A stretch of 64,000 nt of DNA from Pseudomonadota bacterium (GTDB lineage Bacteria > Desulfobacterota > Desulfobacteria > Desulfobacterales > JBDRRP01): contig JBDRRP010000055.1 of the NCBI GenBank assembly GCA_043825735.1, positions 1-64,000 on the forward strand. Reading direction: 5' to 3'. This document shows positions 60,440-64,000 of this stretch, piece after piece. A program made the position numbers and the translations under genes. The number at the start of each line of letters is the position of its first letter. The first letter of the stretch is position 1. The notes below the pieces were generated by a model. The model made no database searches. It had not been told where the DNA came from and saw only the letters and a list, made by a program, of their open reading frames with translations.

Positions 60440-61180
60440 ATGAAAGCGGTTTACTACAATTGATTCAAGGGCCCGGTCACCATCGAAAATCTGCCCGATC
60501 CGAGCCCGTCGCCCGGCGGGGTCGTTCTGCGGGTGTCGGCCACCGGCCTGTGCTTGAGCGACTGGCACGGCTGGATGGGCCATGACCCGGACATCACCCT
60601 GCCCCACGTACCCGGTCACGAACTGGCCGGAGTTGTCGAAGCGGTCGGCCGCAACGTCACCCGGTGGCGTCCGGGTGATCGGGTGACACTGCCCTTTGTC
60701 TGCGGCTGCGGCGGTTGTCCCCAGTGCGCATCGGGCAATCACCAGATCTGTGATCGCCAGTTTCAACCGGGATTCACTCACTGGGGGTCCTTTGCCCAAT
60801 GGGTGGCCATCGACTACGCCGATGTTAATCTGGTCCGGTTGCCCGACGAGATCACCGACGTCGCCGCCACCTGCCTTAATTCCATCGCCGGCCTGAGAAA
60901 ACGCGGCCGCCACGTTCAGGTGGGACTCATGACCGGCGCTCTCAGCCAGCCGGCCATCCCCATGGCCCAGATCATCGCCAACGAGTTGGTGATCCTCGGC
61001 AGCCATGGCATCCAGGCCCATCGCTACGGACCGCTGCTGGACATGATCCGCTCCGGAAAGCTGGCGCCTGAAAAACTCGTGGGCCAAACGGTGCCGCTCA
61101 CGGCGGTGCCCGCCCTGCTGCCGGCCATGGACCGGTTTTCGAACGTGGGGGTCGCGGTCGTCGATATGAATCGGGCTTAG
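60440..61180 (+). pseudogene. Zinc-dependent alcohol dehydrogenase pseudogene
   Basis: AAGGAG RBS, MKAVYYN then in-frame TGA (60461-63); GHE and CGCGGCPQC...C motifs present; no GxGxxG NAD-binding segment (jump at [11 protein letters not shown]). Confidence 0.85.
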
Positions 61181-62465: not shown

Positions 62466-62651
62466 GTCGTCATTTCCGATAACAGGGGGACCTGCTTATG
62501 TACAGTTCTCAAGTTGACTTTACCTGCGGCACTGCGTGGTGATCAAAAACATCAGGGGCTGCGAGTCACCGGCACGGTAATTGTGTTCTGTGCATAACCA
62601 GATAGGGAAAAACGCCGTTGCCTGTCGATAAGCATTATTTTGGAGTTTCTC

Positions 62652-62748: not shown

Positions 62749-62765
62749 TCGGCACGGTAATTGAA
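62749..62765 (+). promoter_or_regulatory. Candidate sigma54 promoter for the small-peptide unit
   Basis: TCGGCACG-GTAA-TTGAA: correct GG-N10 spacing with non-consensus A at -12. Confidence 0.6.
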
Positions 62766-62998
62766 AAGGATATAAGCGATGCGACCCCTCTCAGACAGAC
62801 GGCCCTTCCCGGAGCCAGTCGGCGCCACGCAGCGGCATACTCATGGTGGTGCTTCATTCAGCGGATCGGGCCGCCACCGGGAGCGTTCTTGACCTTTTCG
62901 GCGTAAAAGCGCACAGGCTGCGGTCGCCGGTAAGGCGATCGCCGTGAACTGAGCAGGGCGTTGCGCATGAATTCAATGATCAACCATGGAGGAGCGCC

Positions 62999-63151
62999 AT
63001 GAGCAATGATAATGATGAATCCAAAAAAGATGTCAGCGAAGAATCCGACAACCGTCAAGATGGCGACAGGGCCTGTTGCTTTGTGGTCGATCCCTGCGGC
63101 TGCTATGTGGATCCGTGCGGTTGCATGACGAGATATTCCTGTTGCTGTTAG
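62999..63151 (+). CDS. 50-aa Cys-rich peptide (not in the ORF track)
   Basis: GGAGGAG RBS; MSNDNDESKKDVSEESDNRQDGDRACCFVVDPCGCYVDPCGCMTRYSCCC-TAG. Confidence 0.8.
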   Translation: MSNDNDESKKDVSEESDNRQDGDRACCFVVDPCGCYVDPCGCMTRYSCCC

Positions 63152-63184
63152 ACAACAGGCCTGCGACAGAAAGGAGTTTCAGCC

Positions 63185-63376
63185 ATGAAGGACATTCTCA
63201 AACGCGACATTACCGGTGAATGTGTCGGCGAGTGCAAGGACACCGTAAACGAGGGTTACCGGAACCGACAGTCCGCTATCAATGCCGAAGGCGGCGACTG
63301 GCCGGACACGTTCCCCAGGGTGTCCAGTGCAAGCGCCCGTAACGCGCCGCCCGGGTTTCTCGGGGGACACGTCTAA
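63185..63376 (+). CDS. 63-aa hypothetical peptide
   Basis: AAAGGAG RBS; 33 nt after the Cys-rich ORF; followed by a terminator. Confidence 0.7.
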   Translation: MKDILKRDITGECVGECKDTVNEGYRNRQSAINAEGGDWPDTFPRVSSASARNAPPGFLGGHV

Positions 63377-63409: not shown

Positions 63410-63442
63410 GGACGCCTGCCGGCGCCCGGCGGGCGTCCTTTT
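63410..63442 (+). terminator. Intrinsic terminator closing the peptide unit
   Basis: GGACGCCTGCCGG-CGC-CCGGCGGGCGTCC-TTTT. Confidence 0.75.
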
Positions 63443-63524
63443 ATGGCAACGCCGAGAGGCTTGCCGAATCCGGCCTGCAGCGCAAACGCCTGAGGGTTGA
63501 GGCGATACAGCTGCCGGATGGTGC

Positions 63525-64000
63525 TCAGGCCGGGGACTCACCAGGCAGGATCACACCCTGCCCCGTGCGGCCGTTGATCTTTATGACCAGCGGCGCGTCG
63601 AGCCGGATGTGACGGATGTACTGCGATTCGGCAGCGGCCGGGTGGGCGTCGAGCCATTGATAGTCGAAACATCCGTCGGCGCCTTCGGTAATGGTAATGT
63701 AGGGGATTCCCAGGGCGGTGATGTTCTGGAAAAAATGCGAGCCCTGGGACGGATCGGCATGAAGCAGTTGGTTTCGGATCTCGACGATGGCGCCGACAGC
63801 CGAGATCTGGTGCCACTGCACCGGAATCCCCAGCCAGCGATCCGCCGAGCCCCAGCGGCCTGGCCCCACCAACAGGTAGGGCCGGTGCTGGGCGGATAAG
63901 TCGGCATTGATGCGGCCCACGGCCTCGGCCATCTGGGCGGTGGCGGCGGCCTCGAAGGTATCGGGCCGCACATACACCACGTCCCGGATGGTTTCCAGGC
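63525..64000 (-). CDS. C-terminus of a PEP synthase/pyruvate-phosphate dikinase-related protein (partial)
   Basis: YLLVGPGRWGSADRWLGIPVQW, DPSQGSHFFQNIT; frame open to the window edge. Confidence 0.75.
   Translation of the reverse strand, partial: LETIRDVVYVRPDTFEAAATAQMAEAVGRINADLSAQHRPYLLVGPGRWGSADRWLGIPVQWHQISAVGAIVEIRNQLLHADPSQGSHFFQNITALGIPYITITEGADGCFDYQWLDAHPAAAESQYIRHIRLDAPLVIKINGRTGQGVILPGESPA

Follow-up and report, generated by a model that had tools for sequence, protein, structure and literature searches.

A cysteine-repeat mini-protein family of Desulfobacterales sulfate reducers as a candidate metallothionein-like stress protein

Contig JBDRRP010000055.1 of assembly GCA_043825735.1, deposited as a Pseudomonadota bacterium and placed by GTDB in the Desulfobacterales (JBDRRP01), was analyzed over positions 1 to 64,000 of its forward strand (hereafter, the window). 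Near its end, at 62999..63151, lies a short open reading frame (ORF) for a 50-residue Cys-rich protein, which we refer to as the peptide. This ORF is a real gene and a member of a conserved family, far beyond chance, since the same architecture recurs in a paralog of its own genome, in 44 of 401 sampled genomes of the same order, and at 64 distinct loci. Our best explanation, which we hold with moderate confidence, is that the peptide is a cytoplasmic, metallothionein-like thiolate-cluster stress protein that buffers soft metals and oxidants. We infer metal binding, and favour this explanation, because the conserved and selected half of the protein is the Cys-rich one, because the gene stands alone, and because one clade of the family sits beside the copper exporter CopA.

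A conserved family with a Cys-rich core

The peptide is built in two halves. Residues 1-25 are free of Cys and carry nine acidic (D/E) and four basic (K/R) side chains, whilst the nine Cys occupy positions 26, 27, 33, 35, 40, 42, 48, 49, and 50, in the form of CC, two VDPCGC units, and CCC. Translation of the ORF on the forward strand thereby confirms the bipartite layout that an earlier note, made from the letters alone, had described. With 9 Cys in 50 residues (18% overall) and CC, CGC, and CCC motifs, the peptide has the small size and high Cys content expected of a metallothionein. Its two repeat units (63086-63103, GTC GAT CCC TGC GGC TGC; 63107-63124, GTG GAT CCG TGC GGT TGC) differ at three third-codon positions, all of them synonymous, from which selection at the protein level had been proposed. 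The family bears this out. Over 13 close pairs, the ratio of non-synonymous to synonymous differences (pN/pS) is 0.105 for the core and 0.446 for the tail, so that the Cys-rich core is the part under strong purifying selection and the tail evolves faster. In addition, 38 pairs of DPC[GC]C units that are identical in amino acids differ on average by 2.7 nt per 15 nt, and the DNA is the same in only two of the pairs, which indicates that the repeats are old and have been kept at the level of the protein.

The window (C55:1-64000) belongs to a genome of 6.8 Mb in 160 contigs (G000), which also encodes a 61% identical paralog at C40:118222-118374(-). A profile built from 11 members was used to search the 401 genomes of the order; the positive genomes included 33 of the 279 that are of high quality and represented 31 of 174 genera, and this profile did not find the family in the only other genome sampled from the genus, which is 97% complete. 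When prokaryotes were scanned with a sequence pattern, each species being represented by one genome, 60 stretches matched, and 37 loci among them were confirmed. All 37 come from metagenome-assembled genomes (MAGs) of Desulfobacterota, with record titles naming Desulfobacterales, Desulfobacteraceae, Desulfosarcina, Desulfatiglandales, 'delta proteobacterium', and Thermodesulfobacteriota MAGs, as well as one Delta4 symbiont of the gutless worm Olavius. The family thus appears to be confined to Desulfobacterales-type sulfate reducers. Among 1.84 billion representative proteins, a profile search returned 111 cluster matches at E<=1e-3, of which 29 reach E<=1e-10, although at least two of the 111, P0004 (1218 aa) and P0074 (453 aa), are long repeat proteins with no relation to the family. 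The former, apparently a protein of secreted type, contains eight copies of a module with VVVDPMGCYVDPCAG, a look-alike of the heptad described below. A word-index search for homologues yielded three proteins only, which was too sparse, and homologues were therefore gathered by profile and genome searches. After exclusion of one weak locus (L018, E=1.2e-5), de-duplication left the 64 distinct loci, 40 of which have at least 3 kb of DNA on both sides.

In a set of 35 members, the proteins are 41-54 aa long. The N-terminal tail spans 19-33 residues, 64% of which are K, E, S, or D, and it contains Cys at only 4 of 849 positions; about half of the tails share a semi-conserved [DN]-I-K-K-like motif. 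The core is 38% Cys, with 9 or 10 Cys in 28 of the 35 members, and follows the consensus CC(C)-[YF]-V-V-D-P-C-G-C-[YF]-V-D-P-C-G-C...CCC. Variation in repeat number, which the earlier note had suggested looking for with a profile of homologues, was indeed found: the heptad [YF]VDPCGC is present in two to five copies and the Cys core is conserved throughout. A core Shine-Dalgarno sequence, often in the extended form GGAGGTGAT, precedes the gene at 54 of 62 loci, and at many loci a strong hairpin terminator directly follows the stop codon, so that many genes of the family, each with its own promoter, stand alone and are set up to be expressed strongly.

No database source gives a name to any member, and a literature search did not find a published description of the family. 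A scan of the peptide against NCBIfam returned no families, the sole Pfam match was to lpg1496_N, which at E=0.22 falls well short of its cut-off, and a search of the ESM Atlas produced no usable match. Judged by its sequences, the family lies outside every described metallothionein sequence family.

As a metallothionein-like protein, the peptide would be kept soluble by its Cys-free, highly charged, and disordered tail. The heptad module, capped by CC and CCC, would supply the 9-10 thiolates that wrap soft metal ions into a metal-thiolate cluster, with Cu(I) as the favoured metal and Zn or Cd as possible ones, and the protein would fold only upon metal binding, as metallothioneins do. AlphaFold2, run with an alignment of 89 sequences, predicted no stable fold (mean predicted local distance difference test score 60.3, predicted template modelling score 0.27, two 2-residue strands only); the lack of a predicted fold without ligand is compatible with metal-induced folding, but is not evidence for it. 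The same core thiols could also quench oxidants, and metallothioneins have been assigned both metal buffering and oxidant quenching (PMC7558416, section 4.3).

When every ORF up to 5 kb from the 64 loci was assigned to a cluster, the surroundings of the gene proved heterogeneous. The commonest neighbour is a P1B ATPase (CopA), found at eight loci at a distance of 108-1967 nt from the peptide gene (convergent at five, in tandem at two, and as a fragment upstream at one). The full-length ATPases of L083, L088, and L097 match the NCBIfam model for copper-translocating ATPases, TIGR01511, with 625-630 bits (cut-off 397), for L124, L126, and L130 the ATPase falls on a TIGR01511 match of ~624 bits in the genome, and L085 and L092 hold fragments only. 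The CPC, GMTCxxC, YN, and MxxSS motifs are present in six of the seven P1B ATPase ORFs checked. Since each of five genomes checked encodes only two such Cu-type ATPases, chance adjacency is unlikely at any one locus. All eight of these loci carry the four-repeat subtype of the peptide. In one clade, then, the peptide has stayed next to a copper exporter; in another it is tied to a stress activator whose counterpart at L066 controls a superoxide dismutase gene. The metallothionein-like reading also draws on this link to stress and on stress-related neighbours at single loci, namely rubrerythrin (L118), a fusion of coenzyme A-disulfide reductase and rhodanese (L034), and DsrE2-like and, by eye, TusA-like genes (L129).

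The sigma-54 transcription unit and other regulatory classes

The features of the locus are collected in Table 1.

Table 1. Features of the peptide locus in the window
Feature	Position	Strand	Remarks
Divergent sigma-54 enhancer-binding protein (activator), 424 aa	61191..62465	-	Pfam Sigma54_activat (E=8.5e-73), AAA_lid_14, HTH_8
First exact copy of GGCACGGTAATTG (sigma-54 -24/-12-like)	62571..62583	+	180 nt 5' of the promoter copy, near the activator start codon
A/T-rich inverted repeat, TTGATCGCATCAA then AAATTTTGATTAA	62661..62686	+	Candidate upstream activating sequence, 65-90 nt before the -24 element
Sigma-54-type promoter element GGCACGGTAATTGA	62751..62764	+	GG at -24; TTGA at -12 instead of canonical TTGC
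Shine-Dalgarno sequence GGAGG, peptide gene	62989..62993	+	Five bases 5' of ATG
50-aa cysteine-repeat protein (peptide) gene	62999..63151	+	Encodes MSNDNDESKKDVSEESDNRQDGDRACCFVVDPCGCYVDPCGCMTRYSCCC; disordered charged N-tail (1-25) and 9-Cys core (26-50)
Shine-Dalgarno sequence AAAGGAG, orf63	63170..63176	+	Read from the sequence
orf63, 63 aa	63185..63376	+	33 nt downstream of the peptide gene; own Shine-Dalgarno sequence; predicted to be co-transcribed; no known family
Intrinsic terminator	63410..63445	+	13-bp stem with 11 G-C pairs at 63410-63438, then TTTTAT; closes the peptide-orf63 unit

The activator comprises a coiled-coil N-terminus, an AAA+ sigma-54 interaction domain, and a Fis-type helix-turn-helix (HTH), with no recognizable sensor domain. 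Four other genomes have orthologs of 57-62% identity no more than 5 kb from the peptide gene (L030, L034, L065, and L066), and those of L030 and L065 carry PAS domains. Given that the window's copy has only the coiled-coil N-terminus in their place, it may rely on a partner protein for its signal. The promoter motif GGCACGGTAATTG has two exact copies in the window (62571 and 62751) compared with 0.11 expected, and the + strand upstream of the window's peptide gene showed no sigma-70-like promoter. The window's A/T-flanked TTGAT-N3-ATCAA is the only one of its kind in a scan of the genome; similar TTGAT-N3-ATCAA...TTGAG arrangements, compared by eye and unscored, precede the sigma-54-class peptide genes of L049, L050, L057, L036, L034, and L066. 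A scan of the genome for a regulon, using the promoter and repeat motifs, returned only this locus and, on C12, a single promoter of similar appearance that stands ahead of an unrelated gene. Sigma-54 itself is encoded by rpoN at C4:92738. With a divergent activator, an inverted repeat upstream, and rpoN present, the genomic parts of a sigma-54-dependent operon are in place, and binding by the activator is predicted only. In the scheme that we propose, expression would occur on demand: the divergent activator, bound at the upstream inverted repeat, would fire the -24/-12 promoter, and the transcript would comprise the peptide gene and orf63 and end at the strong terminator.

RNA contigs of 95-99% identity to the window cover 62794-63032, 63058-63208, and 63205-63355. 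They come from three sediment metatranscriptome runs, which carry three study codes but possibly stem from one campaign. There is no coverage upstream of ~62772 or past ~63383, and the span is consistent with a transcript from the 62751 element to the terminator. Loose ends in the same runs belong to other members of the family. A further run, X7, from the probable source study, had no contig over the locus, which is not proof of absence. Also in this part of the window are what is probably a truncated zinc alcohol dehydrogenase gene (60533-61180, +, 215 aa; ADH_N and partial ADH_zinc_N) and, convergent with the peptide-orf63 unit, the gene for a 997-aa protein (window 63525-64000 plus L005 2526-5519, -). 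The latter has a PPDK_N (phosphoenolpyruvate/pyruvate-binding) domain and an N-terminus that is weakly response-regulator-like (whole-protein Pfam E=2.7e-07, 31.2 bits, with no single stretch passing).

Across the family, GGCAC-N5-TTG[CTA] occurs within 300 nt upstream of the gene at 12 of 62 loci in the sense orientation and at none in antisense, compared with 0.16 on average and at most 2 in shuffled sequences; an earlier subset gave 8 of 33 loci. Nearly all of the 12 carry the subtype of the window's peptide, whose core ends in ...DPCCC-x-P-x-Y-xx-CCC. Promoters of the form TTGAC-N17-19-TAnnnT were seen at 25 of the 62 loci, with 5' untranslated regions of ~100-150 nt as estimated by eye. 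We rejected the idea of a riboswitch in these long leaders, since an Rfam search of 20 loci found none; the four matches that it gave, to cobalamin riboswitches and PYLIS elements, lie in other parts of the loci. Five loci have a same-strand TetR-family gene immediately upstream. The paralog in the window genome has retained the promoter, and its activator is reduced to a remnant of ~146 aa. At that locus (L006 9215-13782, G000:C40), two genes come after that for the peptide, a PilZ-like one of 127 aa and one of the aconitase family, and the other flank holds the activator remnant, a cobalamin riboswitch (L004:2211-2397), and BtuF/FecCD/ABC transporter genes.

The orf63 product belongs to a family with an invariant RD.TG.C.GEC motif (CxxxC) and, in most members, a PPGxxGG C-terminus. 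It matches no NCBIfam or Pfam family, and its ESM Atlas search returned low-confidence structural look-alikes only. Besides the window, orf63 adjoins the peptide gene at L030, L064, L065, and L066. It is present in 71 of the 401 order genomes, 20 of the 44 with the peptide versus 51 of the 357 others, figures in which related genomes do not count independently; a DNA match to orf63 on C145 was spurious, as it falls inside a 2244-aa YD-repeat gene. Often orf63 stands behind a sigma-54-like element beside an activator, and it does so without the peptide at L139; the core module therefore seems to consist of activator, promoter, and orf63, which the Cys protein frequently accompanies. At L066, an Fe/Mn superoxide dismutase gene stands first, followed by orf63 and the peptide gene, and upstream of all three are an orthologous activator, a similar repeat, and TGGCAT-N5-TTGTA.

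Several other genes were seen near family members, among them one for HtpG at a single locus. A basic protein of 450-480 aa with HTH-like segments, a C-x-H end, and no Pfam match recurs downstream of sigma-54-class peptides in two families of the order (L034 1740-3182, L064 9224-10573, L104 4970-6319, L107 4787-6184). A different Cys-rich mini-ORF of 40 aa, ending in CCEMFCFCC, lies 2 kb from the peptide gene of G155 (L065 5717-5839, -). In one clade, PYLIS_2 elements and split MttB/Dimeth_Pyl frames are found beside the peptide gene (L047 1054-1153, L055 1031-1130, L073 4997-7869, L117 4053-5060), and these relatives appear to use pyrrolysine. Neighbouring pyridoxal-phosphate enzymes considered as cysteine synthases turned out to be threonine ammonia-lyases.

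Weighing the metallothionein-like reading against its rivals

A number of observations speak against a metallothionein-like function. The CopAs of the eight adjacent loci are 75-92% identical, so that the link to CopA is confined to one clade and looks to be essentially one ancestral linkage that survived rearrangements, rather than eight events. The window genome's own peptide loci are not near copA, which lies on C71 and at C40:26239 (~92 kb from the paralog), and no locus was seen to adjoin a gene for a metal-sensing regulator (CsoR, ArsR/SmtB, or CueR type). None of 36 members matches any metallothionein model of Pfam at E<=10, including PF02069 (Metallothio_Pro), and a profile search of the PDB gave no real match, its single hit being a chance 14-residue alignment at E=1.4. 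Classical metallothioneins have few or no aromatic residues, whereas Tyr or Phe is conserved in nearly every heptad here (9% Y and 2% F in the core); the conserved aromatic, Val, and Asp-Pro of each repeat are likewise atypical of the classical proteins. The [DN]-I-K-K motif of the tail could be a recognition motif. With respect to expression, the -12 position reads TTGA or TTGT, not TTGC, in nearly all sigma-54-type loci, and the RNA contigs cannot show strand, start, ends, or level, with DNA carry-over being possible.

The strongest rival is a metal-free thiol protein, either a sacrificial redox buffer or a carrier of persulfide or polysulfide, which is made upon exposure to oxygen or reactive sulfur and is re-reduced by disulfide reductases. 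We consider it unlikely. It draws on the superoxide dismutase gene that the sigma-54 module drives at L066, on the PAS domains of the orthologous activators, and on a scatter of redox and sulfur neighbours: rubrerythrin (L118), a fusion of coenzyme A-disulfide reductase and rhodanese (L034), dihydrolipoyl-dehydrogenase-like proteins (L031, L110), DsrE2-like (L129) and DsrE (L030) proteins, and an aconitase-family gene within 2 kb at 5 of the 64 loci, including that of the window genome's paralog. (One neighbour at L129 was labelled TusA-like by eye and has no family match.) However, each of these neighbours occurs at one or a few loci and none is conserved across the family, and the constant number and strict spacing of the Cys resemble a dedicated site for binding a cluster more than a bulk thiol. 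The idea also overlaps with our preferred one, as metallothioneins quench oxidants too (PMC7558416, section 4.3). The same aconitase neighbours, together with the Pro-Cys and CxC motifs, the 9-10 Cys, and the richness of the host organisms in iron-sulfur proteins, could point to a mini-protein that holds an iron-sulfur cluster or other cofactor and serves as electron carrier or as cluster scaffold or donor. That is quite improbable, considering that the peptide lacks a ferredoxin-like CxxCxxC...CP spacing, matches neither Fer4 nor any other iron-sulfur family of Pfam, and has no fold in AlphaFold2, and that a repeat number of 2-5 would be odd for a fixed cluster. We give still less credence to a regulatory role, in which the peptide is a partner or antagonist of the sensor-less activator in the sigma-54 circuit, or a Cys-sensing leader peptide. 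Its gene does lie directly behind the sigma-54 promoter and beside an activator without a sensor domain, and the remnant of a second activator flanks the paralog, but 50 of the 62 loci have no sigma-54 element, most members stand alone behind sigma-70-like promoters, and orf63 and the activator occur without the peptide at L139. Attenuation by a leader peptide was rejected, because terminators follow the stop codon and the next genes are convergent at L028 and L029.

The earlier note had left the choice between a metallothionein-like protein and the precursor of a ribosomally synthesized and post-translationally modified peptide (RiPP). As a RiPP precursor, the peptide would present its charged N-terminal half as a leader to an unlinked maturase, either a radical S-adenosylmethionine (SAM) enzyme forming thioethers or a YcaO enzyme forming azolines, after which the Cys core would be cross-linked or heterocyclized and the leader removed. 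The leader-plus-core appearance invites this reading, as does the [DN]-I-K-K-like motif common to about half of the tails, and the Asp/Cys-rich repeats call ranthipeptide cores to mind. YcaO is encoded in five of five carrier genomes, which also have many B12-radical-SAM genes, and orthologs of one of these (51-53% identical) lie near the peptide gene at L128 and L068/L069; a B12-radical-SAM gene is near it at L082 as well. We nevertheless regard a RiPP precursor as improbable. No maturase, leader peptidase, or exporter recurs in the 64 loci, and, in line with the note's remark that no modifying enzyme was visible in the window, no maturase, protease, or exporter is present at 38000-62500 or in the first 17 kb past the window's end, where the genes are those of type II/IV secretion, flagella, and chemotaxis. 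The core is conserved and the putative leader variable, the reverse of what is expected of a precursor. The peptide has no double-glycine site and matches no NCBIfam precursor model. Multinuclear non-heme iron oxidases (MNIO; PF05114, methanobactin/bufferin type) were found in none of the five carrier genomes, which are 94-100% complete. Co-occurrence with radical SAM or YcaO genes, which the note had put forward as a check, gave a negative answer: YcaO is also encoded in four of five genomes without the peptide, and the nearby B12-radical-SAM subfamily is present in 174 of the 401 genomes, namely 23 of the 44 with the peptide versus 151 of the 357 without it. Near-complete carriers such as G048, G076, and G190 do not have that subfamily at E<=1e-100, and we rejected it as the maturase because it does not co-occur with the peptide. 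With no recurring maturase, no MNIO found, and neither YcaO nor B12-radical-SAM tracking the peptide, the RiPP half of the note's alternative is disfavoured. The metallothionein-like half stands as the best-fitting reading, given the selected Cys core, the stand-alone gene, and the CopA clade.

Relation to known systems and significance

A handful of bacterial metallothionein families is known, of which PMC7558416 names SmtA/BmtA and MymT. The closest in kind is MymT, the mycobacterial Cu(I) metallothionein that is said to bind up to six Cu(I) (PMC7558416), a tiny (4.9 kDa), originally unannotated, Cys-rich, cytoplasmic, and lineage-restricted bacterial protein (section 4.3 of the same source). 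A further likeness is that one clade of the present family adjoins a copper exporter. In contrast to MymT, and on a comparison by description only, the present family has heptad repeats, a conserved aromatic, and a long charged N-tail, and its regulators are a sigma-54 activator or, at five loci, an upstream TetR-family gene. SmtA/BmtA (PF02069) are likewise small, Cys-rich metal buffers of bacteria, with SmtA described as having a zinc-finger-like fold and His ligands (PMC7558416). Our family differs from them in its tandem-repeat design, and it lacks a PF02069 match, His ligands, and a predicted fold. Fungal Cu-metallothioneins, of ~25 residues, have CGC/CxC motifs, but are not known to carry a charged tail or the aromatic/Asp-Pro frame. 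The size of the core (~25 residues) and these motifs are what the peptide family shares with them, across kingdoms and with no homology shown. SCIFF/ranthipeptide and other Cys-rich RiPP precursors resemble the peptide in being short, with a Cys-free N-terminal and a Cys-rich C-terminal half. However, those precursors adjoin a radical-SAM maturase, none of which is linked to the peptide in the 64 loci, and no NCBIfam precursor model matches it.

The gene described here is small, conserved, and covered by RNA, and yet it has no name in any source and no match to a family model. Its locus also reveals a small sigma-54 stress module made up of an activator, an upstream repeat, and orf63. Cys-rich polypeptides have long been suspected to control the formation of biogenic metal-sulfide nanoparticles. 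We raise, as little more than speculation, the thought that metal-sulfur clusters are templated by the heptad module (Y-V-D-P-C-G-C)n, a ribosomally made counterpart of phytochelatin whose length can be tuned and whose number of repeats (2-5) sets the capacity, and that this module nucleates or caps Cu or Zn sulfide in sulfide-producing cells. If that were so, the heptad template could be the suspected polypeptide in biofilms of Desulfobacteraceae; ZnS nanoparticle formation is cited for Desulfobacteriaceae biofilms in PMC8779671.

The seven-residue repeat is a compact, modular thiolate motif, and the natural variants with 2-5 repeats form a series in which repeat number may be compared with metal capacity. 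Sulfate reducers control the chemistry of trace metals and metal sulfides in sediments and groundwater, and if the family binds metal, it would be the first metallothionein family from strictly anaerobic sulfate reducers.

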